This document shows positions 29,123 through 60,111 of a DNA stretch of 64,000 bases, piece after piece. The DNA is from Bacteroidota bacterium (lineage in GTDB: Bacteria; Bacteroidota; Bacteroidia; UKL13-3): NCBI GenBank assembly GCA_013298895.1, contig JAAFJM010000005.1, positions 106,229 to 170,228 on the forward strand. Reading direction: 5' to 3'. Each line of letters begins with the position of its first letter. Positions within the stretch are counted from its first letter, which is position 1. The notes under the pieces were generated by a model, which searched no databases, was not told the DNA's origin, and was given only the letters and a program-made list of their open reading frames with translations. Made by a program: the position numbers and the translations under genes.

Positions 29123-29125
29123 TTT

Positions 29126-30801: not shown

Positions 30802-30813
30802 GAATTATTTTGA

Positions 30814-40745: not shown

Positions 40746-41264
40746 CAATAAAAATGAAGCAATAAAAAGTAATTTCATAATATTTTTTTGTTTGTTTAAA
40801 CTTATAGATACAAAGCAGAGCAAAATGTTACAGGTTAAAACATTTGTTTTGTAAACTGTCTGATTAAAACAAAGAGCAAATAAAAATATAACTTTCCATT
40901 CCAAATAAGAGCATGAGAAATAGGAAAAACAACAACCATATAACTATTTAAACATTAAATAATAACACTAAATTTACTAGTAATGTTGTAGTTTTTTTAT
41001 AAATAAAAAATATTGAGCGAAAATATAAAAGGGGGTAAAAAAGAATCAAAATAGTGTACAAGTAGAAAAGTTACATCATCAAAAAAAACAAAAAAAAGTT
41101 TGAAAATAATTTTTTTTACTATATTGGTTGTGGTAAATTTTACCATAATTAAATTTAAAATCAATATATTGATCAACAGTTTCGATTAAAAAAATGCATA
41201 AAAAACTATTACGTACATAAAATAAAAAAAATCAATGCTAATGGATAAACTAAACAGATACAAA

Positions 41265-44200
41265 ATGAAAAAAATGTTACTTCAGTGCCTTTTATTTCTT
41301 ACACCAGTCTTAGCATTTGCGCAAAAGGATAAAGTGTTAGTCATTAAATCTGGCAACGGATTTAAACTTACTGTAAATGGAAAAGAGACGTTCATCAATG
41401 GAATGAATTGGGATTATTTTCCAATTGGTACCAACTACAATTATAGTTTATGGAAGCAATCAGATGATGTGATTATTGCAGCATTAGATATTGAAATGCC
41501 CCTTCTTAAAAATATGGGCGTTAATGTTATTAGGCAATATACTGGCGTTCCAGCAAAATGGGTAAAATATATTTATGAAAATTATGGTATTTATACCATG
41601 CTTAATCATTCTTTTGGCCGCTATGGTTTAACTGTTAAGGGCAAATGGGAACCAAATACTGACTACGCTGATCCAAATGTGCGCGAAATTTTATTGAACG
41701 AAACCAAAGAGATGGTAAGGGAATACAAGGAAACACCTGGTGTTTTGCTTTTTTTGCTAGGTAATGAAAATAACTATGGTCTTTTTTGGAGAGGTGCAGA
41801 AACAGAGAACATACCATTTGCCGACAGAAAGTCAACAAAAGCGGCTTATGACATGTACAAACTCTTCAACGATGCTACAAAAGCATTAAAAGAATTAGAT
41901 AGCAATCACCCAATATCAATATGTAATGGAGACTTATTATTTTCAGATATCATTGCCAAAGAGTGCAAGGATGTTGATATTTTAGGAATTAATTGTTACC
42001 GCGGGTCTTCTTTTACTAATTTGTACGATAAAGTAAAAAAGGATTTAAATATGCCCATATTACTTACTGAATTTGGTTCAGATGCCTATAATACGCTGGC
42101 AAATAAAGAAGATCAAGAATATCAAGCCAAAGTGTTACTTAGCAATTGGAAAGAAATATACGAAAATGCTTCTGGAATGGGTAAAAATGACAATAGCTTG
42201 GGTGGATTCACATTTCAGTTTAGCGATGGCTGGTGGAAAACCGGTCAAACAATAAATTTAGATGAACACGATGCCACTGCTTCATGGTCGAATGGCGGTT
42301 ACAAAAATGATTTTGTTTTAGGTGAGAATAATATGAATGAAGAGTGGTTTGGAATATGTGCTAAAGGACAAACAAATGAGCGAGGAACATACGAACTTTA
42401 TCCAAGAGCAGCCTATTATGCTCTGCAAAGTGTTCATCAGTTTAATCCTTACACTGCAAATCCTGAATCTATAAATATTTTGTTTAAAGGAATTTCTGTG
42501 GCAGATGCTACTTTAAGGGCAAGGGGAGATAAAGCGGTGTTGGAGTCTAAAGATAAAGGCAAATTGTATTTAAGTAATTTACAGGCCAATTTTAACACTT
42601 ACCAAACTGGCGGAAGTTTAATTTCAACTCCTACAACTGCTAACCCAGCAAGCACAACATTTCCAAATGAACAAGGCTTCGACCACATGGAATCATTTAA
42701 TATTGGAGTGACAGCAAGACCTGCTCCTAACATGAGGGCAAATGTTCAATTTAATGTGTTAGGTAATGTTGCTACCAGACCAATTGATGAAATATTTTAT
42801 GAAAACAGGGGACGTAATTTAACGGTTCAAACACCAAATGGACCTCAACAGATTAATTCAAACAATAGGTTGCAATTATATAGAGCAAGTTATACTTGGG
42901 ATGCTCAAGAATTTAAGGTAACAGGTTTTTACAGAACCGGCCACTACCATTGGGGGTATGAGGGCGATTTTTTTGGACTTTATCGTGAGGCTAATTACGG
43001 GCCAAATATTGATATTTATAATGGCAATGCTCCTTTTGGTTTTGAAGTGGAAGCAAAGAAAATGTTAAAAGGCTTGAAAATTGCATTTGGCCCTGAATTA
43101 TGGTGGGGTGCAAACCCCGCTTTTCTAGCAAAATATAGTAGAAAATTAATCGGTTTAGATGTAACTGGTATATTCCATGAAGATCTCGTACAAAGGAGTG
43201 ATTTACAAAGTTCATTTGCTGTACCTGTTCCAAAAACGAGAAGATTGACATTAGCGATTGGTAAAAAAACAGAAAAATTCACATTTGATGTGGGTGGAAT
43301 TTGGGGAGGTCAGCCTCTTGTTGGAAGAGGTTTCCAAATGATCCAAGACAATATTGTGTATGTTGATAAAATAAAAAGTACAGATAATTTTGGAGGAAAA
43401 GTAAAACTTACTTATTCAATAGGATCGATACGATGGTATGGTCTTGCGTCTTATATGGGGCTAGTTGCTAACGGTGGTGTAGATCAAACTAAAACTTTTA
43501 CAGGATGGGTACTTAAGGATATTGGAAGTGGAAATATGTACAATGTACTTTCAGGGTTTACCTACAACATTGGTAAATTTCAAATTGCTCCTAATTTCTT
43601 GTATCAAAAACCTTTAGTAGGACCAATTGGGCCACAATTTGCTGCACCAGCCAGGCCAAGAAATATATTAGATGATCCTTTTTCAGTAAGAGGAAACAGA
43701 GAAACTTTGGGTGGAGAGCTTTTACTAACCTTTGACCCTACTCCAGCTACTTGGATGTATGAATGGGACAATGATAGAATGGAAGATGCACAGTTTGCCA
43801 TGAGTACAGGCTTTGTGTATCGCCATCTACCTACTATTCAAGATGCAGCTATTGGTATTCTTGGAAATGGACGTACTACTTTCGTGTTTCCTGGTTCAGC
43901 ACCAGCACAAGATTTGTGGGAAGCAAATACCAGAATGGTTTCCAAAATAAATCCTCAATTCGGTATTATAGGAAATATTTATTTTGGAAATGGACAAGCA
44001 AATGGAAGTGATACCAGAACTATAAATAGATATGGTATTGACATCAGAACCATTTACAAAAAAATGAAACTAATTACGATGGTTAAAATTGATGATTGGG
44101 GACCTTTTGATTACCACAGAGATTTTAACCAAACTTTCCCGCTTCAGTTGATAGGTGATTGGTCAGTAGAAATAGGGAAACCGGACTGGTTTATGTTGCC

Positions 44201-44378
44201 TGGAACAAAACTTGGATTTAGAGGAACCTACCGCACACTAAATAGATACTCCAATAGATATTCACCAACTACGAAAATGAATAACTTAGGTGAAATTGTT
44301 CCAGACCCAAATGCTATTGGATTCCCTGATGGAAATGAGTGGGAATTTAGAACCTATATCCAAATAAACATTAACTAA
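41265..44378 (+). CDS. Secreted clan GH-A glycoside hydrolase domain (GH5-like) fused to a ~600-aa putative outer-membrane beta-barrel
   Basis: Signal peptide (MKKMLLQCLLFLTPVLAFAQ). The N-terminal ~400 aa carry the LFLLGNENNY acid/base and ILLTEFG nucleophile Glu motifs of TIM-barrel clan GH-A hydrolases. The C-terminal ~600 aa are Gly/Tyr/Asn/Trp-rich with alternating hydrophobic residues, typical of OM beta-barrels. The ORF track starts 10 codons earlier at 41235. Confidence 0.55.
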   Translation: MKKMLLQCLLFLTPVLAFAQKDKVLVIKSGNGFKLTVNGKETFINGMNWDYFPIGTNYNYSLWKQSDDVIIAALDIEMPLLKNMGVNVIRQYTGVPAKWVKYIYENYGIYTMLNHSFGRYGLTVKGKWEPNTDYADPNVREILLNETKEMVREYKETPGVLLFLLGNENNYGLFWRGAETENIPFADRKSTKAAYDMYKLFNDATKALKELDSNHPISICNGDLLFSDIIAKECKDVDILGINCYRGSSFTNLYDKVKKDLNMPILLTEFGSDAYNTLANKEDQEYQAKVLLSNWKEIYENASGMGKNDNSLGGFTFQFSDGWWKTGQTINLDEHDATASWSNGGYKNDFVLGENNMNEEWFGICAKGQTNERGTYELYPRAAYYALQSVHQFNPYTANPESINILFKGISVADATLRARGDKAVLESKDKGKLYLSNLQANFNTYQTGGSLISTPTTANPASTTFPNEQGFDHMESFNIGVTARPAPNMRANVQFNVLGNVATRPIDEIFYENRGRNLTVQTPNGPQQINSNNRLQLYRASYTWDAQEFKVTGFYRTGHYHWGYEGDFFGLYREANYGPNIDIYNGNAPFGFEVEAKKMLKGLKIAFGPELWWGANPAFLAKYSRKLIGLDVTGIFHEDLVQRSDLQSSFAVPVPKTRRLTLAIGKKTEKFTFDVGGIWGGQPLVGRGFQMIQDNIVYVDKIKSTDNFGGKVKLTYSIGSIRWYGLASYMGLVANGGVDQTKTFTGWVLKDIGSGNMYNVLSGFTYNIGKFQIAPNFLYQKPLVGPIGPQFAAPARPRNILDDPFSVRGNRETLGGELLLTFDPTPATWMYEWDNDRMEDAQFAMSTGFVYRHLPTIQDAAIGILGNGRTTFVFPGSAPAQDLWEANTRMVSKINPQFGIIGNIYFGNGQANGSDTRTINRYGIDIRTIYKKMKLITMVKIDDWGPFDYHRDFNQTFPLQLIGDWSVEIGKPDWFMLPGTKLGFRGTYRTLNRYSNRYSPTTKMNNLGEIVPDPNAIGFPDGNEWEFRTYIQININ

Positions 44379-44408
44379 TGAAATTCAATACTTATAAAAA
44401 AACAAAAA

Positions 44409-45818: not shown

Positions 45819-45853
45819 AATAAAGCAAGTTCAATCCTTTAAAAAATGTATTA

Positions 45854-46666
45854 ATGAAGTATATAAATAAAATAATGATAGTGGCTATGCTATTTGTAAT
45901 GCTAGCAGGTTGTGAAGTAGAACCAAAACAAACCCTACCAAATAGAAGCTTCGAGTTGGTTTGGAGTGACGAGTTTGAAGGTGATTCGGGCGTTGCCCCC
46001 AATGCAACTAAATGGACATACGATTTAGGTACTGGTCAAAATGGTTGGGGGAATAACGAACTTCAATCCTATACGAATAAAGCACAAAATGTATCTTTAG
46101 ATGGAAAAGGAAATCTGTTGATAACAGCAATAAAAAATGGTTCCAATTATACCTCTGCACGTATCAAAACGAAAGGAATATTTTCTCAGAAATATGGCAA
46201 ATTTGAGGCACGTATTAAAACACCAACAGGAGCTGGCATGTGGCCTGCGTTTTGGATGTTGGGTGATAATATTGATAGTGTAAGTTGGCCAAAATGTGGT
46301 GAGATTGATATCATGGAACAAAAAGGAAAGTTTTCGAATATTACTTACGGTACTATTCATGGGCCTGGTTACTTTGGTGGCGAAGCTATAAGCTCCCCTT
46401 ATTCAATACCCAATAGCCGATTCGATAATGATTTTTTCATTTACGCTGTAGAATGGAATGAAAGCCAGATTGATTTTTTTGTGAATGGTTATCTTTATAG
46501 AAGAATCACACCTGCTGAAACGAAAGGACAGTGGGTATTCAAACAATCATTTTTTATGATCCTTAATTTAGCAGTAGGTGGAAACTTTGGAGGACCTCCA
46601 AATGAGAATACACCATTTCCAGGAACTATGGCTGTGGATTATGTCAGAGTTTATAAGTATAAATAA
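45854..46666 (+). CDS. GH16 endo-beta-1,3-glucanase (laminarinase) lipoprotein
   Basis: Lipobox (MLAGCEV). ELVWSDEFEG and the GH16 catalytic motif EIDIME (ExDxxE). ARIKTKG, WPAFWMLG. Confidence 0.85.
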   Translation: MKYINKIMIVAMLFVMLAGCEVEPKQTLPNRSFELVWSDEFEGDSGVAPNATKWTYDLGTGQNGWGNNELQSYTNKAQNVSLDGKGNLLITAIKNGSNYTSARIKTKGIFSQKYGKFEARIKTPTGAGMWPAFWMLGDNIDSVSWPKCGEIDIMEQKGKFSNITYGTIHGPGYFGGEAISSPYSIPNSRFDNDFFIYAVEWNESQIDFFVNGYLYRRITPAETKGQWVFKQSFFMILNLAVGGNFGGPPNENTPFPGTMAVDYVRVYKYK

Positions 46667-46780
46667 CTCTGCAACATTGTTATTTGTTATATTTAAATTA
46701 GCTGATAACACTTTTGAAATATAATGTTTTGAAAAAATTAGATTCTTAAAATTTATAAAAAGGTAAATAAATACCAATTA

Positions 46781-49700
46781 ATGACAGGTCAAAATCAAGA
46801 AAAACAAGAGTCTTTAGTAGCAATAAAGCGATTGAAAATTGAAGGTGAAAACTTCTTTTGCATTTCAAACAATAATGAAATGCGTCCATTTTTTATGAGT
46901 ATAGTAAGCGATTCTCATCATTGGATGTTTATATCCAGTAATGGAGGGATTACTGCTGGACGTAAGAGTGCTGAGTACGCATTATTTCCTTATTACACTG
47001 TTGATAAAATTACTGAATCATACGACATTACTGGTTCTAAGTCAATATTTCAAGTAATTCAAAATGACGAAATCCATGTATGGGAACCATTTTCTGAACG
47101 AAATGAAAGCGAATTTCACACTGCTAGAAACCTATATAAAAATGCTATTGGTAATAAAATCATTTTTGAAGAAATAAATCATACGCTTGGGCTTACATTT
47201 AGATATGAATGGAACTCTAGCAATATGTATGGGTTTGTACGTAAATCTACTATAGAAAATATAGGAGATAAAGAACTTAAAATTAATTTGCTAGATGGCA
47301 TACAAAATATAATGCCAGATGGTGTAAGTAGTGATTTACAAAACGCTGCTAGTAATCTTGTTGATGCGTACAAGAGAAATGAATTAGATGCGGGTTCAGG
47401 GATGGGGATATTTGCCCTAAGTGCAATTATAGTAGATAAAGCTGAACCTAGCGAAGCACTTAAAGCCAACGTTGCTTGGTCTCTTGGACTTGATAATCCA
47501 AAATATTTAGTGTCTTCTTTGCAACTTAATGCTTTTAGAAAGGGATTAGGCATAGTTCAAGAAGAAGATGTGAAGGCAGAAAAAGGATCTTATTTCATTA
47601 ATAAAGAAATTACATTATCACCTGGGAATAAAAAAAATTGGTTAATTATAGCTGATGTAAACCAAAGCCAGGCCGATGTTGTTAGATTAATTAATGAGAT
47701 TAAAACCAATAAAGAAATTAGAAAACTGGTAGAAGACGACATAGAACTTGGCTCTCAACGATTAATTGAACTTAATGCATCATCTGATGGCATCCAATTG
47801 TCGGATGATGTTTACAGGGATACACGACATTTTTCCAATACCCTTTTCAATATAATGCGAGGCGGCATTTTCGATTTCAATTACCAAATCGAAAAGTGGG
47901 ATTTAGTTAAACACTTCATTACGGCTAACAAAACGGTTTATGAAAAGCACCATAAGTTGTTTGATGGCTTGGCTGAAACTTTCACAGTTTTTGAATTAGA
48001 AAAATTATCATCTGAAACTGACGACAACCATTTTAAGAGACTATGTGCAGAATACATGCCTTTAAAATTCAGCAGAAGGCATGGTGATCCAAGTAGGCCT
48101 TGGAATAAATTTTCAATCAACACCCGAAGCGCGGTTGACCACTCAAAGGTATTGGATTACGAAGGCAACTGGCGAGATATTTTTCAAAACTGGGAAGCAC
48201 TAGCAATCTCTTACCCTGCCTTTACCAAGAGTATGGTTCACAAGTTTTTAAATGCAACTACTTTTGAAGGATATAATCCTTATAGGTTAACTAAAAGTGG
48301 TTTTGATTGGGAAACAGTAGAGCATGATAATCCTTGGTCGTATATTGGTTATTGGGGAGATCATCAGATTATATATTTGTTAAAATTATTGGAAATTAAT
48401 GAGAAGTATTTTCCTGGTCAATTAAGTAGCCAATTTAATCAAGACCTTTTTGTATATGCCAATGTTCCTTACAAAATAAAGAGTTATAATGAAATTGTGA
48501 ACAACGCTAAAGATACCATAGAGTTTGAGGAGGCGTTGGATGCAAAAATCAGAAAAAAGCGTGACTTAATAGGTTCTGACGCTACACTTTTAGAAGATCA
48601 AAAAGGAAAAATTTATTCCGTAAATTTTATAGAGAAAATATTAGCAACTGTTTTGTCTAAACTCTCCAATTTTATTCCTGGTGGTGGAATTTGGATGAAT
48701 ACCCAAAGGCCGGAATGGAATGATGCAAACAATGCACTTGTAGGGAATGGTGTTTCCGTTGTAACCCTCTGCTACCTGCGAAGGTTCCTTGTGTTTTTTG
48801 ATAAGCTTATTGAGCAAACAGCGGATGAAGATCGCGTTGAAGTATCGAATGAGTTAATCATCTTCTTTAAAAAATTACATACAACTTTTGATGAACATGC
48901 AGCATTGTTAAAAAATGACATCAATGATGCTCAACGCAAAGAAATACTTGATAGTTTAGGTCAAGCAGGAAGTGATTACAGAGAACATATTTACAAACAA
49001 TCATTTTGGGGAGAGAAAAGAACAATTTCATACCGTAGGCTTAAAGCATTTGCTAAAGTAAGTTTACAGTTTATAGAACATACAATCAACGCCAATAAAC
49101 GTGATGATGAGATGTATCATTCCTACAATTTGATGAGCATTCGAGACAATAATGAAATTTCTATTTCTTACCTCAATGAAATGCTCGAAGGACAAGTTGC
49201 TGTGCTGAGTTCGGGTTACCTATCTCCAAAGGATGCCTTAAAACTATTGGATAGTATGAAGAAGAGTGCGCTTTTCCGTCCTGATCAGTACAGCTATTTG
49301 CTTTACCCAAATAAAATACTTCCTAAGTTTTTAGAGAAGAACAATATCCCAAAAGAAGCCATAAAACAATCAAAGCTTATCAATGCAATGTTAGCTGATG
49401 GCGATAAATCGCTTGTAGAGCAAGACATAAAAGGAGATTACCATTTTAACGGTAACTTTAAAAATGCTGCCGATTTAAGTGATGCCATTTCAAAATTGGA
49501 GAATTCAAAGTATGGTCAGTTCATTCAAAGTGAAAAGAAAGCTCTTTTAGATACTTTTGAATTAGTTTTTGACCATAAATCATTTACTGGCCGTTCTGGT
49601 ACATTTTATGGCTACGAAGGTCTAGGCTCTATTTACTGGCACATGGTTTCTAAACTGCAATTGGCTGTGCAAGAAGTATGTTTGCAAGCAATAGAAAAAG

Positions 49701-50236
49701 AAGAAAGTGCCGAGGTAATTGGAAAATTATTGGAGCATTATTACGAAATAAATGCAGGCGTTGGTGTGCACAAATCGCCATCACTTTACGGTGCATTTCC
49801 TACCGATCCATACTCTCACACTCCGGCTAACAGAGGAGCGCAACAACCAGGCATGACAGGCCAGGTAAAAGAAGACATTCTTAGTAGATTTGGCGAATTG
49901 GGTGTTTTTGTTTCCAATGGTCGTTTGTATTTTAATCCATGTTTATTAAGAAAAAACGAGTTTACAACAGAAGACCGTTTGTTTAATTACGTTACCATAA
50001 ATAAGGAACATAAAACTTTTGCACCTGCCCTTGGCTCACTTTGTTTTACTATTTGCCAAGTTCCAGTCATTTACTGTTTATCAAATGAAAATCGTCTTGA
50101 AATTGAAAAGAAAGATGGTAATTTAAGTAAACATGATACCCTGTACCTTGATGCAGAAACAAGCACACAAATCTTTAATAGAACAGGTAAAGTAGCTAAA
50201 ATTACTGTATATGTCAAAGAATCAATATTGAAGTAA
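46781..50236 (+). CDS. Large cytoplasmic protein; candidate beta-1,3-glucan phosphorylase (GH149/GH161/GH94-clan-like)
   Basis: 1151 aa, no signal peptide. Embedded among GH16/GH17/GH30 genes. Size and context match the GH149-type phosphorylases described in flavobacterial laminarin loci. I cannot confirm catalytic motifs by eye. Confidence 0.4.
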   Translation: MTGQNQEKQESLVAIKRLKIEGENFFCISNNNEMRPFFMSIVSDSHHWMFISSNGGITAGRKSAEYALFPYYTVDKITESYDITGSKSIFQVIQNDEIHVWEPFSERNESEFHTARNLYKNAIGNKIIFEEINHTLGLTFRYEWNSSNMYGFVRKSTIENIGDKELKINLLDGIQNIMPDGVSSDLQNAASNLVDAYKRNELDAGSGMGIFALSAIIVDKAEPSEALKANVAWSLGLDNPKYLVSSLQLNAFRKGLGIVQEEDVKAEKGSYFINKEITLSPGNKKNWLIIADVNQSQADVVRLINEIKTNKEIRKLVEDDIELGSQRLIELNASSDGIQLSDDVYRDTRHFSNTLFNIMRGGIFDFNYQIEKWDLVKHFITANKTVYEKHHKLFDGLAETFTVFELEKLSSETDDNHFKRLCAEYMPLKFSRRHGDPSRPWNKFSINTRSAVDHSKVLDYEGNWRDIFQNWEALAISYPAFTKSMVHKFLNATTFEGYNPYRLTKSGFDWETVEHDNPWSYIGYWGDHQIIYLLKLLEINEKYFPGQLSSQFNQDLFVYANVPYKIKSYNEIVNNAKDTIEFEEALDAKIRKKRDLIGSDATLLEDQKGKIYSVNFIEKILATVLSKLSNFIPGGGIWMNTQRPEWNDANNALVGNGVSVVTLCYLRRFLVFFDKLIEQTADEDRVEVSNELIIFFKKLHTTFDEHAALLKNDINDAQRKEILDSLGQAGSDYREHIYKQSFWGEKRTISYRRLKAFAKVSLQFIEHTINANKRDDEMYHSYNLMSIRDNNEISISYLNEMLEGQVAVLSSGYLSPKDALKLLDSMKKSALFRPDQYSYLLYPNKILPKFLEKNNIPKEAIKQSKLINAMLADGDKSLVEQDIKGDYHFNGNFKNAADLSDAISKLENSKYGQFIQSEKKALLDTFELVFDHKSFTGRSGTFYGYEGLGSIYWHMVSKLQLAVQEVCLQAIEKEESAEVIGKLLEHYYEINAGVGVHKSPSLYGAFPTDPYSHTPANRGAQQPGMTGQVKEDILSRFGELGVFVSNGRLYFNPCLLRKNEFTTEDRLFNYVTINKEHKTFAPALGSLCFTICQVPVIYCLSNENRLEIEKKDGNLSKHDTLYLDAETSTQIFNRTGKVAKITVYVKESILK

Positions 50237-50238
50237 TC

Positions 50239-51522: not shown

Positions 51523-53030
51523 TGAAGAACATGAAACAGCATTTATTTTCCGTAAAAACTTTTCTATTGGTGATGACTTGTGCTGTTTTTGTTCAATGTA
51601 ATAATATTAGAAAAATGACTATTGATGTATATGAAACCTCAGAAAACGGAAATTCACTTACGCTTATAAAAGATTTTAAACCCGCTGACGAATCTTTAAC
51701 ATTAAAGGTAAATCCAGCCGAGCAATTTCAAAAAATTACAGGATTTGGAGGGTCATTTACTGAGGCATCGGCCCATTTGTTAAATAAATTGAGCCTTGCC
51801 AACAGAAAAAAAATATTAGACGCTTATTTTAGTCAAGAAGGCGCAAATTATTCTCTAACCAGAACACATATTGCATCGTGCGACTTTTCGTTAAGCAACT
51901 ACACCTATGCCAAAGTTGAAAACGATTTGGAAATGAAACATTTTACAATTGAAGATGATAAAATGGATTTAATTCCGATGATTTTAGATGCCAAGAAAAC
52001 ATCAAAAGAAGGATTTAAAATTATAGCCTCTCCATGGACTTGCCCACCGTGGATGAAAGACAATAAAAAATTTGTTGGAGGGAAATTATTACCCGAGTTT
52101 AATGATGCTTTTGCTTTGTATTTTTCAAAATATTTATCGGCTTATAAAAAAGAAGGAATTGATATTTGGGGCGTAACAGTAATTAATGAGCCACATGGCA
52201 ACGGAAATAACTGGGAAAGCACCTTGTTTTCACCAAAAGAAATGACTGATTTTGTTCAAAACCATCTTGGGCCAAAATTAGAAAAAGACAATTGGGGTAA
52301 AGTAAACATTTTTGGTTACGACCAAAACCGAGCTGGCTTAAAGGAATGGGTTGATGAAATGTACAAAGATGAAAAATCATCAAAGTATTATGCTGGTGTT
52401 GCCATTCACTGGTACGAAAGCACGTATAATTATTTTCCAGATGCACTTCAATATGCGCACAAAAAAGCACCTAATAAATATTTAATAGAAACCGAAGGTT
52501 GTGTAGATTCAGAAGTTCCAAAGTGGCAGGATGATAAATGGTATTGGCAAAAAGAAGCCACCGATTGGGGTTGGGACTGGGCAAGCGAAAAGGACCGTCA
52601 TTTACACCCAAAATATGCACCTGTAAATAGGTATGCAACAGACATAATTGGCTGTTTGAATAATTATGTAGATGGTTGGGTAGATTGGAACATGGTTTTA
52701 AACAAACAAGGAGGGCCTAATTGGTTTAAAAATTGGTGTGTAGCTCCTGTAATTGTAGATGAAGAAAAGGACGAAGTGTATTTTACACCATTGTACTTTA
52801 TAATGGCACATTTTAGTAAATTTATGCGACCAGGAGCTGTTAAAATTGGCTGTGAAATAAATCACAAAGAAGTAATGACAACGGCTGTTCAAAACCCTGA
52901 TGGAAGCATTGTGATTGCATTATTTAACCCTACGGATAAAAAATACAATATTGCAATCAACATCAATAAGGAAATAAAAACAATTGCCATAGATTCAAAA
53001 GCATTACAAACAATAGTAATTAAAAATTAA
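51522..53030 (+). CDS. GH30-family beta-glucosidase/beta-1,6-glucanase
   Basis: Signal peptide. ITGFGGSFTEASA, VTVINEPHG (catalytic acid/base NEP) and the glucosylceramidase-like architecture. Confidence 0.75.
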   Translation: MKNMKQHLFSVKTFLLVMTCAVFVQCNNIRKMTIDVYETSENGNSLTLIKDFKPADESLTLKVNPAEQFQKITGFGGSFTEASAHLLNKLSLANRKKILDAYFSQEGANYSLTRTHIASCDFSLSNYTYAKVENDLEMKHFTIEDDKMDLIPMILDAKKTSKEGFKIIASPWTCPPWMKDNKKFVGGKLLPEFNDAFALYFSKYLSAYKKEGIDIWGVTVINEPHGNGNNWESTLFSPKEMTDFVQNHLGPKLEKDNWGKVNIFGYDQNRAGLKEWVDEMYKDEKSSKYYAGVAIHWYESTYNYFPDALQYAHKKAPNKYLIETEGCVDSEVPKWQDDKWYWQKEATDWGWDWASEKDRHLHPKYAPVNRYATDIIGCLNNYVDGWVDWNMVLNKQGGPNWFKNWCVAPVIVDEEKDEVYFTPLYFIMAHFSKFMRPGAVKIGCEINHKEVMTTAVQNPDGSIVIALFNPTDKKYNIAININKEIKTIAIDSKALQTIVIKN

Positions 53031-53041
53031 TAACATAGATT

Positions 53042-55396
53042 ATGTCCAATCAAATTTCATCACAAAAAGTGCCCATGGGGCAAAAAATCGCCTTCGGATT
53101 GGGAATGCTAGCCAACCAAATGTTCCCAGCTATGATTGGTATTTTTACCGTTGTATTGGTAGAAAAACTTGGATTTAGTGGATTGTTACTTGGATTAACC
53201 TATTTTATTCCTAAGTTTTATGATGCTTTATTTGATCTTATAATGGGATATGTAAGCGATAATACTAAATCTAAATGGGGTAGAAGAAGACAATATGTAT
53301 TGGCAGGTGCTATTATATTAGGGATTTCATTTTCATTAATGTGGCAATTGTATGCTGAAAATGGTGTTACTTACAATTTTTGGTACTTTTTAGTTGTGTC
53401 GCTAGTTTTTTATTCAGGGCTTACCATATTTAGTATTCCTTATGTAGCAATGGGATACGAAATGAGTGATGATTTTCATGAACGAACAAATATCATGGCT
53501 ACTTCCCAACTTATTGGTCAATTAGCTTGGGTTGTTGCTCCTTGGTTTTGGGTAATAATGGCTGATGAATCTTTGTTTCCATCAACCGATGTAGCAGTTA
53601 GAACTTTATCGGTGTATGTTGCAATTGGATGTAGCATTTTAGCAGCCATTCCAGCTTTCTTTATTCCAAGTAAATCAACATTGAACGAAAATTATAGCCC
53701 AATTGATTTTAAAGGAATACTTGGCAGTTTTGGAGAAATCAAAGAAGGATTAAAAGCTTCGGCAGAAATTAAACCATTCAGAAAAATTTGTATTGCAACC
53801 TTCTTAATTTTTAATGCTTTTCAAACCACAGCAGGTTTTTCTTATTTTATCATCAAATATTATTTGTTTAAGGGAAATGAAGACGGTTTTGGATTATGGC
53901 CAACATTATTTGGATGTGTGGGAGCTATGATTACTACAGTTATTGTAATACCTATTGTTGCTAGAATGTCTAAAATAATGGGAAAAAAGAAGGCATTTTT
54001 AGTTTCTCAAAGCATTTCAGTATTTGGTTATATTTTATTATGGATACTTTTTGTTCCGGGGAAACCTTATCTTTTTCTTTTTGCATTACCTTTTTTTGCA
54101 TTTGGTATTGGAAGTTTGTTTACCCTAATGATGTCTATGACTTCTGATGTAATAGATATTGACGAATTAAATACTGGAAAAAGAAGAGAAGGAAGTTTGG
54201 GGGCTATCTATTGGTGGATGGTAAAATTTGGAACTGCCGTAGCGGGATTATTAAGTGGTTTAATTCTAACTTTTGTTAGTTTTAAATCTAATGCACCTAC
54301 CCAAACAGATGAAACTATGTTTTGGTTAAGAATCTTCTTTGTTGGAATTCCAATATTAGGAACATTGGCTGCTATTTGGGCAATGAAAGATTATGATATT
54401 GATGAAGTAAAAGCATTAGAAGTAAGAGATCTTTTAGAAAAAAGGAAAAAACCTTCAGTAAATAAGCAATCATCCAGTTATCTTACTGGCAAATTACTTT
54501 CTTTATCCAATAATGGATCTTTAATCAATAAGTTGGTTGGAACAGATTTAAGTTCAAAAAGCGAAGAAGAAATAGAAACTCTATTTTCTAAGCAATTTAA
54601 TACTGGTTTAAATGGATTATGTTTTAGTCCTTATATTGAAGGGCAAAAAGTGGGCGATATTTTATCGGCCGAACAAATAAGAAGAAGATTAGAAATTATT
54701 GCACCGCATACAAAATGGATTAGAACTTTTTCATGCACAGAAGGAAATGAATTGATACCAGAAATTGCGCACCAAAAAAGCATTAAAACAGTTGTTGGAG
54801 CATGGATAAGCAATGATAGAGTGAGGAATGAAAAAGAAATAAATGAATTGATAAAACTTGCAAATGCTGGCTTGGTTGATATTGCAGCGGTAGGTAATGA
54901 AGTTTTGCATAGGGAAGAGATTTCAGAGGATGAATTAATTGAATACATTAAAAGAGTTAAAAACGCCATTCCAAATCATATTGAAGTAGGTTATGTTGAC
55001 GCCTATTATCAATTTATTGAAAGGCCTATACTTGTTGATGCTTGCGACTTGATTTTATGTAATTTCTATCCTTTCTGGGAAGGTGCTAACATTGATTATT
55101 CTGCATCTTATCTTTCAAATATGCTTGAGGTTACCAAAGCAGTAAGTAAGAATAAAAGAATAATTATTACAGAAACAGGATGGCCTAGTTTTGGAGAAAC
55201 AGTAGAAAATGCTGTACCATCAAAAATAAATGCGATGAAATATTTTGTTGTTTCGCAAGAATGGGCAAAAAGCAATAAAATAGAATTATTCCATTTTTCA
55301 TCATTCGATGAATCATGGAAAGTTATTCAAGAAGGTAAATTGGGAACATCTTGGGGATTATGGGATAAAAACGAAAAATTCAAGTTCAAAAAATAA
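53042..55396 (+). CDS. Fusion protein: N-terminal MFS/GPH-family sugar transporter (~460 aa) plus C-terminal GH17 domain (~300 aa)
   Basis: The N-terminal half has about 12 hydrophobic helices and a GPH-like DxxxGxRR region (DNTKSKWGRRRQ). The C-terminal half has AAVGNEVLH and IIITETGWPSFGE, a match to the GH17 signature, and is ~45% identical to the next gene. Confidence 0.7.
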   Translation: MSNQISSQKVPMGQKIAFGLGMLANQMFPAMIGIFTVVLVEKLGFSGLLLGLTYFIPKFYDALFDLIMGYVSDNTKSKWGRRRQYVLAGAIILGISFSLMWQLYAENGVTYNFWYFLVVSLVFYSGLTIFSIPYVAMGYEMSDDFHERTNIMATSQLIGQLAWVVAPWFWVIMADESLFPSTDVAVRTLSVYVAIGCSILAAIPAFFIPSKSTLNENYSPIDFKGILGSFGEIKEGLKASAEIKPFRKICIATFLIFNAFQTTAGFSYFIIKYYLFKGNEDGFGLWPTLFGCVGAMITTVIVIPIVARMSKIMGKKKAFLVSQSISVFGYILLWILFVPGKPYLFLFALPFFAFGIGSLFTLMMSMTSDVIDIDELNTGKRREGSLGAIYWWMVKFGTAVAGLLSGLILTFVSFKSNAPTQTDETMFWLRIFFVGIPILGTLAAIWAMKDYDIDEVKALEVRDLLEKRKKPSVNKQSSSYLTGKLLSLSNNGSLINKLVGTDLSSKSEEEIETLFSKQFNTGLNGLCFSPYIEGQKVGDILSAEQIRRRLEIIAPHTKWIRTFSCTEGNELIPEIAHQKSIKTVVGAWISNDRVRNEKEINELIKLANAGLVDIAAVGNEVLHREEISEDELIEYIKRVKNAIPNHIEVGYVDAYYQFIERPILVDACDLILCNFYPFWEGANIDYSASYLSNMLEVTKAVSKNKRIIITETGWPSFGETVENAVPSKINAMKYFVVSQEWAKSNKIELFHFSSFDESWKVIQEGKLGTSWGLWDKNEKFKFKK

Positions 55397-55407
55397 ATAT
55401 ACATATC

Positions 55408-56355
55408 ATGTCATATAGAGAAGGTCATTTATTTAATCAAAAGAATCAGGAAAACTATTCTAATTCACACACTGAAAAACATGCTAATTCATATCACGAA
55501 ACTATTCATGTTAATTATTCTGAACTTTCAAATGATGATTTAAAAAGTTTATGGCATAAAACACTTCTGGGTGGAATGCATGGTATTTGTTTTAGTATTT
55601 ATGAAGATGGACAAAAGCCAGGAGCAATCATTACAGAAGCCCAAGTAGAAAGGCGCATAAAAATATTACAACCTTATGCCAAATGGGTGCGCTCGTTCTC
55701 TTGTATTGAAGGAAACGAACACGTGCCAAGAATGGCAAAAAAGTACGGAATGAAAACCCTTGTGGGGGCATGGCTTGGAGATGATTTAGAATTGAACGAA
55801 AGAGAAATTGAAGGCTTAATTGCGATGGCAAATGAAGGCTTGGTTGATGTGGCTGCTGTGGGTAATGAAGTGATGTATAGAAAAGATTTAACAGAAGAAC
55901 AATTATTAGCATATATACAAAGAGTAAAAGAAGCTATACCTCATATTCCAGTTGGTTATGTTGATGCCTATTACGAATTTTCTCACCGACCAAGAATTAC
56001 AGAAATTTGCGATGTGATTTTAACAAACTGTTACCCCTATTGGGAAGGATGTCCTATTGAATATTCCTTTGAACATATGAAAAGCATGTTTGAGTCCGCC
56101 AAAAATGCTAGTCAAGGTAAACGTGTAATTGTTACAGAAACTGGTTGGCCAAGCGAAGGTGGAGCATTTAAAGCATCAGTTGCTAGTAATGAAAATGCAA
56201 TGCGTTATTTTATTGATTGCCAGAATTGGTGTAATATAAATGGTATTGAGAGTTTTTATTTTGCTTCATTTGATGAATCTTGGAAAACTGGTCCAGAAGG
56301 CGATGTTGGAGCGTATTGGGGACTTTGGGATAAACATGAACAATTGAAATTTTAA
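55408..56355 (+). CDS. GH17-family protein without signal peptide (cytoplasmic paralogue)
   Basis: AAVGNEVMYR, VIVTETGWPSEGG. No N-terminal signal sequence. Paralogous to the C-terminal domain of the preceding fusion. Confidence 0.7.
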   Translation: MSYREGHLFNQKNQENYSNSHTEKHANSYHETIHVNYSELSNDDLKSLWHKTLLGGMHGICFSIYEDGQKPGAIITEAQVERRIKILQPYAKWVRSFSCIEGNEHVPRMAKKYGMKTLVGAWLGDDLELNEREIEGLIAMANEGLVDVAAVGNEVMYRKDLTEEQLLAYIQRVKEAIPHIPVGYVDAYYEFSHRPRITEICDVILTNCYPYWEGCPIEYSFEHMKSMFESAKNASQGKRVIVTETGWPSEGGAFKASVASNENAMRYFIDCQNWCNINGIESFYFASFDESWKTGPEGDVGAYWGLWDKHEQLKF

Positions 56356-57302
56356 TGGCGGATTTTTTTAATCAATTTAATTTACCATTTGCCAAAGCCA
56401 TGTGTTATTCTGGCTTTCGAAATGGACAACAACCAGGTGGAATTGTGCCATCTTACGAAGAAATAAAAGAAGATTTACTGCTTTTAGCACCTCATTGTAA
56501 TTACTTGCGATTGTATGATTGTGATGAGCACGCGTTAACCGTAATCAAGGTTATTCTCGAAGAAAAATTAGACTTCAAATTAATGCTTGGGGCGTACATC
56601 GTAGCCGAATTGAATAACCACGGCTGCCCATGGGGTGGTGGTATTTATGAGGAAAGGCAATTGGAAGAAAATAGGAAAATGAACGACCAAAAAATTCAAA
56701 GCCTAATCGATTGGTCTAATCAGTATACTGAAATTATTTGTTGTGTATCACTTGGCAATGAAGCTTGTGTTGATTGGACGGATCATTTTGTACCTGTTGA
56801 CCGTGTAATAGAGTTTGCAAAAAGAGTGAAGAAAAGTATTGAACAACCAATTACCTTCTGCGAGAATTATGTTCCCTGGTTAAATTATCTCGCACCACTT
56901 GTAGAGGTAATAGATTTCATTTCAATACACACCTATCCAGTTTGGGAATACAAACACATAAACGAATCTGTTGATTATACCATTGCTAATTATCAAATGG
57001 TAGCCAATCAATATCCTCAAATTCCTGTGGTAATTACGGAAGCGGGCTGGGCTACCAATTCGCATGGCAGAGGAATTCATGTTGAACATGTAAATGAAGA
57101 GAATCAGAAAATTTACTATGAAGACTTAATGGATTGGTCTATTAAAAACAATGTATTGACCTTCTTTTTCGAAGCATTTGACGAACAATGGAAAGGGTCA
57201 CCAGATCCATTGGAACCTGAAAAGCATTGGGGAGTGTTTAAAGCTGACAGGACGCCTAAATTGGTTTTTGCAGAATCCGCTAAAGTGTTAAAATCAACAT
57301 AA
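56355..57302 (+). CDS. Divergent GH17-like protein without signal peptide
   Basis: SLGNEACVDW, VVITEAGWATNSHG. The start overlaps the upstream stop (ATGA-type overlap at 56355). Confidence 0.6.
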   Translation: MADFFNQFNLPFAKAMCYSGFRNGQQPGGIVPSYEEIKEDLLLLAPHCNYLRLYDCDEHALTVIKVILEEKLDFKLMLGAYIVAELNNHGCPWGGGIYEERQLEENRKMNDQKIQSLIDWSNQYTEIICCVSLGNEACVDWTDHFVPVDRVIEFAKRVKKSIEQPITFCENYVPWLNYLAPLVEVIDFISIHTYPVWEYKHINESVDYTIANYQMVANQYPQIPVVITEAGWATNSHGRGIHVEHVNEENQKIYYEDLMDWSIKNNVLTFFFEAFDEQWKGSPDPLEPEKHWGVFKADRTPKLVFAESAKVLKST

Positions 57303-57380
57303 GCCTCCATCACTTTTGGGTGATGGCACGCTATTTAAACAGATTAACTTGTATTGGTAAAACTAAATACTTCTTATATC

Positions 57381-58106
57381 TTAAAGTTCAAAAGAAAAGC
57401 CCTTTTCTTCTAGTACCTTGTATCTTTTTTCATCAAATTGAAATAGTTTGGCAGGACGGTGAGCAACATTTTCTTTAAACTCATTCAAAGGTTGTAAAAT
57501 ATTCATTTCAAGAATTTTTTTCCTGAAATTAGATTTGTCAAACTTATATCCTAGTAGGGCTTCGTATAACAATTGTAATTCCAGTAGTGTAAATTTAGTT
57601 GGCAACAATTCAAATCCTGTAGGCTTATGTCGAACCTCATGTTTTAATGTTTCGATGCCTTTTTGAAGAATAGTATAATGATCAAAAGCCAATTCAGGCA
57701 ACTCATTTATACTAAACCATTCTGCAGATTTTGCCCAAGAAGAAGCAATGGGATTATAGCTCAAACTATTTACTACTGAAAAATAGCCTACCGTAACCAC
57801 TCGATCCAATGGATGTCTATCTATACTTCCAAAAGCGAAAAACTGCTTCATGTAAATGTTTTTTAATCCAGTGAGCTTTTCCAACACGTTATTAGCAGCA
57901 TCACATAAGTTTTGTTCAGGCTCTACAAGATCTCCAATTAAGGCCCAATGATCTTTAAATGGCTCCAAACTTCTTTGCACCAGCAATACCTTTATCTCAC
58001 CTTCTTGGTAACCAAAAATCACACAATCAACAGATAAACCAAAAATAAAGTACTCCCTGATTGGAATATTATAGTCGGATATATAGTAAGCATTTGTTGA
58101 TTTCAT
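57381..58106 (-). CDS. NrtR/AraR-like Nudix-domain transcriptional regulator
   Basis: Nudix-like fold (GLSVDCVIFGY...VLLVQR...WALIGDLVE, degenerate Nudix box) followed by a C-terminal winged-helix (FTLLELQLLYEALLG), as in Bacteroides AraR/NrtR. I take the start at MKSTNAYY (58106) rather than the upstream ATG, which would add a hydrophobic extension. Confidence 0.5.
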   Translation of the reverse strand: MKSTNAYYISDYNIPIREYFIFGLSVDCVIFGYQEGEIKVLLVQRSLEPFKDHWALIGDLVEPEQNLCDAANNVLEKLTGLKNIYMKQFFAFGSIDRHPLDRVVTVGYFSVVNSLSYNPIASSWAKSAEWFSINELPELAFDHYTILQKGIETLKHEVRHKPTGFELLPTKFTLLELQLLYEALLGYKFDKSNFRKKILEMNILQPLNEFKENVAHRPAKLFQFDEKRYKVLEEKGFSFEL

Positions 58107-58215
58107 GTTGCAAAATAACAGAAGAATTGTAAGTAAAATAAATTTACTTATAGTATTTTTTACTTTAACTTTTTTTGCTTTACTTGCGTTTACAAATATA
58201 TTAATATAATTACAT

Positions 58216-60051
58216 ATGAAAAAAATCATTACTTTAAGTTTATCCTTACTTGTTTCAAGCATAGGATTTTCTCAAAACGCCCCAATTAATTTTGAAACGG
58301 GTGGTCAAGGTGCGAGTTGGACTTGGACAACTTTTGAGAATGGCACGAATCCAACATTAGAAATTGTAAACAATCCTAGTTCAGTTGCTCCAAACACTTC
58401 TAGTAAAGTAGCAAAATTTACTGCACTAAAAGGAGGTAATCCGTGGGCTGGATGTGAGTCTGCGAAAGGTTCAGATATTGGTACGTTTTCTTTATCTGCA
58501 TCAAATGCCAGAGTGAAAATTTTGGTTTACAAAACTAGAATTAGCGATGTTGGAATCAAGTTCGTTAACAGCACCAATGGCTCTACAGGCGAAATCAAAG
58601 TTCCTAATACTAAAATCAACGAGTGGGAAGAGTTAACTTTTGACTTTTCTTCAAAAATTGGTGTCCCTGAATCAAATAATATTACTCAAATTGTAATATT
58701 CCCTGATTTCATTCCCGGTGGTGATCCTAGAGCTGATACTACTATTTCTTATTTCGACAATATTACATTTTCTGCCGGCACTACTTTAGCTGAACCAACT
58801 GCGCCTGCCATGGCTCCAACCAAACTAGCCGCTGATGTTATTTCATTGTTTAGCAACGCTTATACCAATGTAACAGTTGATACTTGGAGAACAGGTTGGT
58901 CTAACGGTACACTTACAGAAATGAAAATTGGCACTGATGATGTTAAAAAATACTCTGGATTGGATTTTGTTGGTATTGAAATGATTGCAAAACCAATTAA
59001 TATCAGTGCTATGGATTTGTTTGAATTTGACATTTGGACGCCAAATTCAACTAATTTTAGATTCAAATTAGTTGATGCTGGAGCCAATGGAACTATTGGA
59101 GGTGGGGATGATAAAGAGCACGAACTTACTGTTACTCCTACATTAGAAGGATGGAATCATATAGCGGTGCCAATATCGAATTTTACTGGCTTAACAACTA
59201 AGTCAAATATTGCACAACTTATTTTTGGAAGTGCGCCTGTAGGTACATCTATAGTTTATTTGGATAATATTATGTTTAGTAAAGCCCCTGTATTGGCTGA
59301 ACCAACTGTTGCAGCAAAAACTCCTACAAAATTAGCTAAAGACGTTATTTCTTTGTTTAGCAATGCTTACACCAATGTAACAGTTGATACATGGAGAACT
59401 TCTTGGTCTAATGGAACACTTACAGAAACGAAAATTGGAGCTGATGATGTTAAAAAATACACTGGATTAGATTTTGTTGGGATTGAAACGATTGCAAAAC
59501 AAATTGATTTAACTGGTATGGATTCATTTGAATTTGATATGTGGACGCCAAATTCTACTGCTTTTAGGTTCAAATTAGTTGATGCAGGCGCTGATGGTGT
59601 TATTGGTGGTGGTAATGATAAAGAACATGAAACAACCATTACACCGACTTTAAACGGTTGGAATCACGTAGCAGTGTCAATATCGAGCATGACAGGCCTT
59701 ACAACCAAAAAGAATATTGCACAACTTATTTTTGCAAGTGCGCCTGTAGGGACTTCAATTGTTTACATTGATAATGTTTTATTTAGCAAAAAAACTTCAG
59801 TAGGTGTTTCTTCTATTGCGCAAGAAACAATTGGTGTTTTCCCAAATCCTGCAAGCAATAATTTAAATATCACCACTAAAAATAATATTCAAGATATTGC
59901 CATTTACAATGCATTGGGTCAGGTTGTATTAACAACTTCACCAAATGCTAATACTGTAAATGTTGATATTACTAGTTTACCAAACGGTTTTTATACTGTT
60001 AAGGCTAGCATAAATGGTGTTGATACCTTCAAGAAAATTATAAAAGAATAA
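58216..60051 (+). CDS. T9SS type A cargo protein with three CBM-like beta-sandwich domains (two near-identical tandem copies)
   Basis: Signal peptide. The C-terminus VFPNPASNNLNITT...IYNALGQVV...GFYTVKA is Por_Secre_tail. Internal 169-aa repeats are ~85% identical. Confidence 0.75.
   Translation: MKKIITLSLSLLVSSIGFSQNAPINFETGGQGASWTWTTFENGTNPTLEIVNNPSSVAPNTSSKVAKFTALKGGNPWAGCESAKGSDIGTFSLSASNARVKILVYKTRISDVGIKFVNSTNGSTGEIKVPNTKINEWEELTFDFSSKIGVPESNNITQIVIFPDFIPGGDPRADTTISYFDNITFSAGTTLAEPTAPAMAPTKLAADVISLFSNAYTNVTVDTWRTGWSNGTLTEMKIGTDDVKKYSGLDFVGIEMIAKPINISAMDLFEFDIWTPNSTNFRFKLVDAGANGTIGGGDDKEHELTVTPTLEGWNHIAVPISNFTGLTTKSNIAQLIFGSAPVGTSIVYLDNIMFSKAPVLAEPTVAAKTPTKLAKDVISLFSNAYTNVTVDTWRTSWSNGTLTETKIGADDVKKYTGLDFVGIETIAKQIDLTGMDSFEFDMWTPNSTAFRFKLVDAGADGVIGGGNDKEHETTITPTLNGWNHVAVSISSMTGLTTKKNIAQLIFASAPVGTSIVYIDNVLFSKKTSVGVSSIAQETIGVFPNPASNNLNITTKNNIQDIAIYNALGQVVLTTSPNANTVNVDITSLPNGFYTVKASINGVDTFKKIIKE
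58789..59802 (+). repeat. Tandem 507-bp intragenic duplication (2 copies, ~85% nt identity)
   Basis: GCTGAACCAACTG... at 58789 recurs at 59296, and the sequences stay collinear for ~500 bp. Confidence 0.8.
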
Positions 60052-60074
60052 ATTTAAGATTTTAAAATAATACA

Positions 60075-60111
60075 AAGGGCAAGCAGTTTTACTGCTTGCC
60101 CTTTTTGTTTT
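60075..60111 (+). terminator. Rho-independent terminator
   Basis: AAGGGCAAGCAG-tttta-CTGCTTGCCCTT followed by TTTTGTTTT. Confidence 0.7.

Follow-up and report, generated by a model that had tools for sequence, protein, structure and literature searches.

The locus treated here occupies positions 41,265-60,051 of a stretch of 64,000 nucleotides from an uncultured Bacteroidia bacterium (contig JAAFJM010000005.1 of assembly GCA_013298895.1; the whole stretch is called the window in what follows). It consists of eleven tightly packed open reading frames (ORFs) forming a beta-1,3-glucan (laminarin-type) set, and nine of them point the same way and overlap or lie at most 115 bp apart. A first description made from the letters alone (the sequence-only reading) had counted twelve genes, which has to be lowered to eleven; every gene that it listed is nevertheless present where it had been placed, and its family assignments were reproduced by Pfam and NCBIfam profile scans plus searches against solved structures, on which the assignments given below are based. 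The enzyme set that it had taken for a laminarin-degrading one was confirmed as well, with its GH16, GH30, GH17 and phosphorylase families (GH, glycoside hydrolase). The locus is very probably an operon for the utilisation of beta-1,3-glucan. It is of the type known as 'PUL 2' in Formosa (PUL, polysaccharide utilisation locus), and the part of it that deserves notice is the pair of genes at its head: P1, a GH158-like enzyme fused to a beta-barrel, and its partner lipoprotein P2, which head beta-glucan loci devoid of SusC/SusD across the phylum.

P1 (41265-44378, plus strand) is a protein of 1037 aa in which a clan GH-A enzyme precedes the barrel, with a weak Glyco_hydro_2_C match at aa 86-301. 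Its translation starts with a type I signal peptide without lipobox (41265..41321; MKKMLLQCLLFLTPVLAFA, then QKD), and the homologues of P1 align from residue 1, signal peptide included. The N-terminal catalytic domain (aa 24-395; 41334..42449) has a (beta/alpha)8 clan GH-A fold which is closest to GH158 structures, and its motifs GNE (E168) and TEFG (E269), invariant across 55 homologues, align to the GNE and TEFG of 9oro. At the sequence level the similarity to GH158 is weak (phmmer E 1.5e-3, profile E 1.3e-4, 22% identity). The solved GH158/GH157 enzymes, namely 9oro GH158(Pro), 6pal BuGH158 and 9fz9 LaGH157, are 19-22% identical to P1 with marginal E-values and, unlike P1, have no membrane barrel. 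From the modelled fold, the domain is a predicted beta-1,3-glucanase of GH158/GH157-like type. The family GH5_46, named in papers on laminarin PULs, was also considered for P1 and was dropped because the enzyme characterised from that family, 576 aa long, has a CBM6 but no barrel. A 2026 preprint lists a GH158 in the laminarin PUL of F. agariphila, together with GH149, GH17 and GH30_1, and this GH158 may be the P1 homologue.

The domain is followed by a linker (aa 400-427; 42462..42545), for which helices H400-409 and H412-427 are predicted in the full-length AlphaFold2 (AF2) model, and by the C-terminal domain (aa 434-1037; 42564..44378). In the full-length model the TIM barrel is confident and the C-terminal part is not. 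When the last 608 residues were remodelled with a diverse alignment, a structure of about 26 long antiparallel strands was obtained (predicted local distance difference test, pLDDT, 87.9; predicted template modelling score, pTM, 0.85). The predicted strands are amphipathic, with a mean Kyte-Doolittle value of +1.27 on one face and -1.01 on the other, and their connections mostly alternate between turns of 2-3 residues and loops of 18-36 residues, a long loop following strand 1. The C-terminal domain is thus very probably a transmembrane outer-membrane beta-barrel, as far as a predicted structure can tell, and the 'GH/beta-barrel fusion' proposed from sequence is real on the strength of this confident model and its amphipathic strands. 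As for the enzyme half, which had been labelled 'GH5-like', the barrel-type (GH-A) enzyme stands and the GH5 label gives way to GH158/GH157-like, which fits better.

The barrel appears to belong to an undescribed outer-membrane family. It has no Pfam match even at E-values up to 10 and no close solved relative. P1 lacks what marks a TonB-dependent transporter, an N-terminal plug domain with TonB box inside a barrel of 22 strands: there is no Plug, TonB_dep_Rec or CarboxypepD_reg match and its N-terminus is the TIM-barrel enzyme; similarity to SusC was absent by both phmmer and tblastn. Searches of open-access papers and bioRxiv found no description of a GH-barrel fusion, of GH158 together with a barrel or membrane, or of GH149 together with the outer membrane, and in the structural paper on GH158 the sequences had been trimmed to the catalytic domain. 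A 'putative porin' of Formosa, FORMB_11920, was examined as a possible relative of P1 and is unrelated, being a DUF1597 porin in a nitrogen-metabolism cluster.

The strand connections also bear on the side of the membrane at which the enzyme lies. In outer-membrane proteins the short turns face the periplasm, and therefore the N-terminus of the barrel, the linker and the enzyme would be located on the periplasmic side. In terms of the model, the fused glucanase would be periplasmic unless the helix threads the lumen as in an autotransporter. In this second arrangement, of type Va kind, the GH158-like domain would be a surface endo-laminarinase and the barrel would be plugged and would transport no sugar. 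The order of helix and barrel in P1 resembles a type Va autotransporter, and the passenger-like N-terminal domain, the helix of about 28 residues and a first strand starting on the short-turn side make up the topology signature of that class. Besides, BuGH158 is described as a cell-surface enzyme of Bacteroides (PMC7157763), one distant homologue carries an extra N-terminal CBM_4_9, and the Formosa counterpart of P1 reaches 0.67 %riBAQ (relative intensity-based absolute quantification) in the extracellular fraction. P1 differs from type Va proteins in having no autotransporter Pfam match and about 26 strands rather than 12, and its display at the surface with a plugged barrel is considered unlikely.

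Over the diverse homologue set, conservation within the barrel is highest at aa 557-590 (...HYHWGYEGDFFGL...), 612-618 (LWWGANP), 824-843 (DPTPATWMYEWDNDRMEDA) and 946-956. These segments are long connections in which aromatic and acidic residues abound, and they exceed the membrane strands in conservation. Such conservation is unusual for exposed loops and suggests that these connections may face the lumen or make up a site for binding.

P2 (44409..45818, plus strand) is a lipoprotein with a Pfam Big_2 domain and a C-terminal beta-sandwich resembling a carbohydrate-binding module (CBM), which is 27-32% identical (E 1e-13) to two repeats of the secreted protein at the other end of the locus. 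Its lipobox ends in QFGC, followed by KRDLSND, and it is predicted to be a surface glycan binder and the partner of P1. GH16 (45854..46666, plus strand; Pfam E 1e-22) is a laminarinase-type endo-beta-1,3-glucanase lipoprotein (lipobox LAGC, then EVE), predicted to be surface-exposed, and its best solved relatives are the beta-1,3-glucanases/laminarinases 2hyk (E 2e-73), 3azx and 4crq. The giant 'putative phosphorylase' of the sequence-only reading (46781..50236, plus strand) can now be named GH149, a beta-1,3-(oligo)glucan phosphorylase: it scores 1758.7 bits with NCBIfam NF058639, whose equivalog cutoff is 1150, and matches PDB 6hq6 (Pro_7066) with 1625 bits over its full length (aa 13-1150). 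It has no signal peptide.

The next two genes encode lipoproteins that are predicted to face the periplasm. The GH17 lipoprotein (50239..51522, plus strand; lipobox LTSC) is an orthologue of the endo-beta-1,3-glucanase FbGH17A, since it aligns end to end with the structure 6fcg (E 4.6e-171, aa 9-424 against 8-423). GH30 (51522..53030, plus strand; Pfam GH30 E 7e-76 plus GH30C) is subfamily-1-like, its nearest solved relatives being GH30_1 glucosylceramidases (E 1e-75), and it has the same gene position as FbGH30 in Formosa PUL 2; it is assigned as an FbGH30-type exo-beta-1,6-glucosidase (debranching). They are followed by MFS_2::GH17 (53042..55396, plus strand), an inner-membrane sugar symporter of the GPH family within the major facilitator superfamily (MFS), fused to a C-terminal GH17 of FbGH17B type. 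Pfam MFS_2 covers aa 18-455 over its full profile (E 6e-61) and GH17 covers aa 697-782; the last hydrophobic helix is at aa 427-445 and there is no transmembrane segment beyond aa 445. Of the two GH17 paralogues that come next on the plus strand, both without signal peptide, that at 55408..56355 is nearest to GH17 glucanosyltransferases (PDB 4wtp, R. miehei beta-1,3-glucanosyltransferase, E 1.3e-35), and that at 56355..57302 has an FbGH17A-related core (PDB 6fcg, E 1.8e-22). These paralogues, the GH17 domain of the MFS fusion and GH149 are predicted to be cytoplasmic.

The locus is completed by a regulator on the minus strand (57381..58106) and by a protein of 58216..60051 (plus strand) that is secreted by the type IX secretion system (T9SS). 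The latter carries three CBM-like domains and a Por_Secre_tail (E 1e-13), and it is predicted to be a secreted or surface beta-glucan binder; its CBM_11 match (E 2e-4) is below cutoff, and its aa 32-147 match 8qx6 weakly (E 0.0085). These weak matches are all that a comparison of the P2 and T9SS-protein domains with the laminarin-binding CBMxx/CBMyy families of 10.1101/2023.09.07.556657 gave. The locus is closed at its 3' end by a strong bidirectional hairpin terminator (60074..60104), whose 14-bp stem contains 7 G-C pairs and which has a T-run on either strand; the number of terminator-like sites in the region as a whole is not above chance.

Acidic residues after the lipid-bearing cysteine are the pattern of the lipoprotein surface-export signal in Bacteroidota. 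At least two D/E at positions +2 to +6 after this cysteine are found in 71% of the P2 homologues and 67% of the GH16 homologues, against 4% for GH17A and 21% for GH30, and this pattern agrees with the extracellular-to-membrane ratios of Formosa. The localisation signals would fit a spatial relay, with P2 and GH16 predicted at the surface and GH17A and GH30 facing the periplasm.

The sequence-only reading had stressed that no SusC-like transporter or SusD-like lipoprotein accompanies these genes, and this holds for the window, where no ORF of at least 110 aa gives a Plug, TonB_dep_Rec, CarboxypepD_reg or SusD Pfam match and where tblastn with six queries taken from related loci, three of them SusC and three putative SusD, gives only noise (best E 0.095). 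It had also advised looking for the pair in the flanks. The 8.3 kb to the right (to the window equivalent 72,360, on a contig with identical genes) encode RmuC, a DAG kinase, GlyRS and an amidohydrolase and no SusC/D, and the 3.2 kb to the left (on another contig) contain small ORFs only and no SusC/D.

This type of locus has been published before. In Formosa sp. Hel1_33_131 the laminarin-induced 'PUL 2' comprises FORMB_24670-24750 (Table S3 of Unfried et al. 2018, PMC6246565): FORMB_24670, annotated as 'GH2 family'/hypothetical (117 kDa), FORMB_24680, hypothetical (49 kDa), FORMB_24690 (GH16), FORMB_24700 (a PKD-domain protein), FORMB_24710 (GH149), FORMB_24720 (GH17, FbGH17A), 24730 (GH30), 24740 (MFS, FbGH17B) and 24750 (GH17). 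Of these, FbGH30 (exo-beta-1,6), FbGH17A (endo-beta-1,3) and FbGH17B (exo, MFS-fused) were characterised biochemically in that work; for GH149, too, the activity has been demonstrated by others. The gene order is that of the window, likewise without SusC/SusD inside the cluster. The differences are the extra PKD-domain protein between GH16 and GH149, and the number of GH17 genes that follow the MFS fusion, one in the Formosa list and two (both cytoplasmic) in the window; as far as the genes listed in Table S3 are compared, there is neither an NrtR-type regulator nor a T9SS CBM protein in Formosa. Unfried et al. name the first gene GH2/hypothetical and describe no beta-barrel.

All nine proteins of PUL 2 were detected on laminarin. 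Their induction over glucose starts at about 1.5-fold, for GH30 in the soluble fraction, and at the other extreme detection was confined to laminarin (PMC6246565). FORMB_24670, the counterpart of P1, was induced 150-196-fold and accounted for 1.19 %riBAQ of the membrane-enriched proteins, 0.67 of the extracellular and 0.18 of the soluble ones, whereas both laminarin-induced SusC-like receptors remained below it, with 0.46 and 0.45 %riBAQ. FORMB_24680, the counterpart of P2, was detected on laminarin only and was highest in the extracellular fraction (PMC6246565).

Similar clusters have been reported elsewhere. Kuhaudomlarp et al. 2018 (PMC5827456) found GH149 genes of Bacteroidetes in 'CAZyme clusters lacking susCD-like gene pairs', and the laminarin PUL of Muricauda lutaonensis is given (PMC13188888) as a LuxR-type regulator, 'GH2', GH16, GH149, GH17A, GH30_1, MFS and GH17B; text searches of that paper returned no SusC/D described for this PUL. 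The regulator is of a different type from that of the window, which is NrtR-like. In the Muricauda and GH149 papers, the first gene is treated as a soluble GH2 beta-glycosidase or is left undiscussed. The 'non-canonical' design put forward by the sequence-only reading is consequently no discovery in itself, because this locus type, with the same gene order, is already in print.

P1 is widespread. More than 5,340 clusters at 90% identity match it over its full length, and it is encoded by at least 593 GTDB species representatives; its carriers include Chitinophagaceae, Flavobacterium, Chryseobacterium, Cloacibacterium, Saprospiraceae, Bacteroidales, Algoriphagus, other Cytophagales and Balneolales. 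The fusion is 60-92% identical over its full length among the sampled loci and the closest database matches. Gene neighbourhoods were counted in 80 fetched P1 loci, 46 of which have at least 5 kb upstream and at least 8 kb downstream of P1, and in these loci the gene order of the window is mostly kept. P2 lies immediately downstream of P1 in 75/80, so that the pair takes the first two positions of the operon across the phylum, and the five loci without P2 are all cut by contig ends. Near P1 there are also GH16 (68/80), GH149 (52/80), a GH17 of FbGH17A type (50/80), GH30 (47/80) and MFS (42/80). A SusC-like transporter with a putative SusD within 10 kb was found only in three loci, L057, L073 (Flaviramulus) and L077; the SusC/D-less layout is therefore the rule for this locus type and not a peculiarity of the window.

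A search with the barrel alone among 1.84 billion representative proteins gave 464 families, most of them fusions of 1,000-1,100 aa. A second, divergent clade of fusions is 43-48% identical in the enzyme and 30-33% in the barrel; it has no P2, lies on contigs of 36-62% GC and adjoins GH149, GH30, MFS, GH16 and GH17. Two barrel homologues carry extra N-terminal modules, one of them the CBM_4_9 already mentioned. Others are stand-alone barrels of 570-600 aa with a signal peptide and a C-terminal Y-x-Y-S/K-F signal, which are 26-33% identical and adjoin multidomain GH16 genes on metagenome contigs. In L088-L090, L095, L097 and L099 (metagenome contigs, GC 0.44-0.52), stand-alone barrels of 586-598 aa are flanked by multidomain GH16, and in L088-L090 unannotated ORFs of 436-707 aa also flank them and recur in the same order.

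From these data a route for the glucan can be proposed. At the surface, the GH16 lipoprotein would cut laminarin while P2 and the T9SS-secreted protein, which both have CBM-like domains, would hold the glycan. Oligosaccharides would then pass through the approximately 26-stranded barrel of P1 without TonB, and the GH158-like glucanase, most likely at the periplasmic mouth of the barrel, would cleave the incoming chain and could ratchet it inward. In the periplasm the GH30_1 lipoprotein would strip the beta-1,6 branches and the FbGH17A orthologue would cut the backbone. The MFS symporter would import the short oligosaccharides through the inner membrane, its fused GH17 meeting them on the cytoplasmic face, and in the cytoplasm the two GH17 paralogues and GH149 would convert them to glucose and glucose-1-phosphate, phosphorolysis being energy-saving.

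In this route the passage through the outer membrane is the only step to which no component is otherwise assigned, and the barrel of P1 is the obvious candidate. The sequence-only reading had proposed uptake through the fusion and the permease: the fusion and the lack of local SusC/D have stood, and uptake through the barrel remains what it was, something deduced. Passage through the barrel and the side on which the glucanase lies are both plausible from the model, and the chances that the barrel is a channel for the substrate, with the enzyme placed at the periplasmic opening, are judged to be about even. A transport-related role for P1, and not that of a mere anchor, is supported by the lead position of P1-P2, the rarity of SusC/D nearby, the full-length conservation of the fusion, the conserved loops, the stand-alone barrels near GH16 and the neighbours of the second fusion clade. 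A much broader proposal can only be made tentatively, and it is probably not correct in full: that P1 and P2 constitute an unrecognised TonB-independent outer-membrane glycan importer which replaces SusC/SusD for beta-1,3-glucans and works as a hydrolysis-driven ratchet with a glucanase of processive type, the stand-alone barrels being beta-glucan porins elsewhere.

Several observations weigh against the channel reading. The full-length model of P1 has low inter-domain confidence (pTM 0.46), and the alternation of the strand connections breaks at connections 18 and 24, which are expected to be short and have 20 and 10 residues. The C-terminus of P1 (...EFRTYIQININ) lacks a terminal aromatic residue, whereas the stand-alone barrel homologues, which have signal peptides, end in YFTYSF, YATYKF or YYEYSF. 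The membership of the N-terminal domain in GH158 is weak by sequence (E 1e-4, 22% identity), and orthology to the FORMB genes is deduced from synteny, annotation and protein mass, with an alignment for FbGH17A alone. Moreover, the only well-studied carrier, Formosa B, has two further laminarin-induced loci, PUL 1 and PUL 3, with the SusC/D pairs FORMB_10080/10090 and 13580/13590 (PMC6246565), and in three of the 80 loci SusC/D stands directly beside an intact P1-P2. P1 thus coexists with SusC/D and is not a strict replacement for it. Since Formosa has SusC/D laminarin loci elsewhere, the absence of the pair from a locus does not show uptake independent of it, and by analogy the organism of the window may carry such loci elsewhere in its genome too.

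These last facts also feed a different explanation, according to which the locus is a processing module only: SusC/SusD encoded elsewhere in the genome would import the laminarin, and the barrel of P1 would merely anchor the glucanase. The Formosa pairs and the three mixed loci speak for it. Nevertheless, about 26 strands and 600 residues far exceed the needs of an anchor, the most conserved parts of the barrel are aromatic and acidic loop segments, and stand-alone barrels that have no enzyme to anchor are still kept beside GH16 genes. Besides, P1 and P2 keep the first two operon positions in 75 of the 80 loci across the phylum, and in Formosa the counterpart of P1 outweighs either SusC in the membrane fraction. 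We regard the processing module as a possible, though not a probable, account of the locus, less likely than the channel with its periplasmic enzyme.

Regarding regulation, the protein of 57381..58106 is of NrtR/AraR type, with a NUDIX domain and a winged helix (Pfam NrtR_WHD E 1e-24, AraR_C E 2e-14, NUDIX E 2e-8). It scores 138 bits with the NCBIfam NtrR equivalog, below the cutoff of 400, and is therefore a member of the family and not an NrtR equivalog. This gene call of 241 aa is more likely than the longest ORF, which ends at 58262, and the protein is a probable local repressor. Among the sampled loci, an NrtR-type regulator is confined to the window and its nearest relatives from Chitinophagaceae, where it adjoins P1 in the Chitinophagaceae loci. 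A Y_Y_Y/Reg_prop regulator of about 970 aa lies upstream of P1 in 35 loci of 80 (about half). The Y_Y_Y type is the BguR type, which activates laminarin utilisation in F. agariphila according to a recent preprint, and the NrtR-type regulator would replace this sensor in the present lineage.

Two operator candidates were noted. The perfect palindrome TGGTAAATTTTACCA (41131..41145, no strand assigned), about 120 bp upstream of the start codon of P1, is a candidate on weak evidence: it is the only exact copy in the window, and with up to two mismatches there are 2 matches, a number reached by 19 of 100 shuffles. It is not common to the NrtR-linked loci L003, L007 and L040, which carry instead TTGCGTCAcaaTGACACAA, a near-palindrome located between P1 and the divergently oriented regulator of NrtR type (L003 3180-3200, L007 9808-9828, L040 ~1208-1228). 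TTGCGTCAcaaTGACACAA is a candidate operator for the NrtR-type regulator in these three Chitinophagaceae loci, and it is absent from the window. No NrtR operator or regulon is claimed at the palindrome of the window, and no match was found between the regulator and the T9SS gene. A sigma-70 promoter scan gave matches not above chance, with a model that is unsuited to Bacteroidota.

The regulators also bear on the idea that the locus is not catabolic at all and that it makes or remodels the cell's own beta-1,3-glucan and exports it via the barrel. For this it would use GH17 transglycosylases and the reversible GH149. The idea is very improbable, given that the locus has neither a glycosyltransferase nor a synthase; its GPH symporter is of importer type, its GH16 is a laminarinase of the surface and its GH30 removes branches. 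The syntenic locus of Formosa responds to laminarin from outside, and the BguR-type sensor, an activator of laminarin utilisation in F. agariphila, accompanies about half of the related loci.

The rest of the window contains housekeeping and accessory genes, including DnaK and pyruvate carboxylase. Directly upstream of the locus, short ORFs at 40195-40780 (minus strand) hold alpha/beta-hydrolase remnants ('HGGPG...DRRG', with a proline-iminopeptidase-like N-terminus), probably a pseudogene, and at 38871-40023 the genes of a HipA_2-like kinase (259 aa) and of a DUF3037 protein (127 aa), with an overlap of only some bases, form a two-gene module. After the terminator, a secreted GH97 (alpha-glucosidase family) is encoded at 60810-62924; it is probably an independent alpha-glucan gene, because GH97 was found near P1 in none of the 80 related loci. 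A second T9SS substrate, unrelated to the glucan locus, is the 1261-aa protein of 7515-11300, in which four PKD repeats occur along with a CHU_C domain for type-IX secretion. Three consecutive genes at 2195-7016 (minus strand) resemble an island for defence or stress: a protein of 737 aa in which GIY-YIG, Schlafen-group-3/ResIII helicase and S24 peptidase domains are united, a MazG-like pyrophosphohydrolase and a 664-aa TPR protein. Finally, about twelve small co-directional genes at 24200-31911 are dominated by five GNAT acetyltransferases and two S-adenosylmethionine (SAM) methyltransferases, together with an OsmC-like protein, a DUF418/HGSNAT-like acyltransferase, an alpha/beta hydrolase and a protein of class C beta-lactamase fold.

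Laminarin is among the largest carbon fluxes of the ocean; in soils and fresh waters, beta-1,3-glucans count among the main polymers of fungi and algae. How Bacteroidota capture glycans is at present modelled on the basis of SusC/SusD. The counterparts of P1 and P2 are among the most strongly laminarin-induced membrane-associated proteins of Formosa, yet they are annotated as 'GH2' and 'hypothetical'. The recognition of P1 as an enzyme-barrel fusion offers a genetically testable hypothesis for how substrate may cross the outer membrane in SusC/D-less loci. It also flags a missing domain family of Pfam/CAZy-adjacent kind, one which PUL predictors keyed to SusC/D would overlook.

The closest canonical system is the SusC/SusD PUL with BuGH158 of Bacteroides (PMC7157763), which is directed at the same substrate class and has a surface endo-glucanase, surface lipoproteins that bind glycans and an enzyme of GH158 fold. 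In both systems two outer-membrane genes, for a barrel and a lipoprotein, head the operon. The present locus differs in that there is no TonB-dependent transporter and no SusD fold, the barrel is fused to an enzyme, and cytoplasmic import and phosphorolysis are encoded in the same operon. With regard to the barrel itself, P1 shares the transmembrane beta-barrel fold with maltoporin, ScrY, chitoporin, AlgE, the FimD/PapC ushers, the TonB-dependent transporters and LptD. Within this group the aromatic and acidic conserved loops of P1 recall the sugar-binding constrictions of the glycoporins. The chitoporin gene adjoins those of chitinases, and the gene of the P1-type barrel likewise adjoins enzymes for its presumed substrate.

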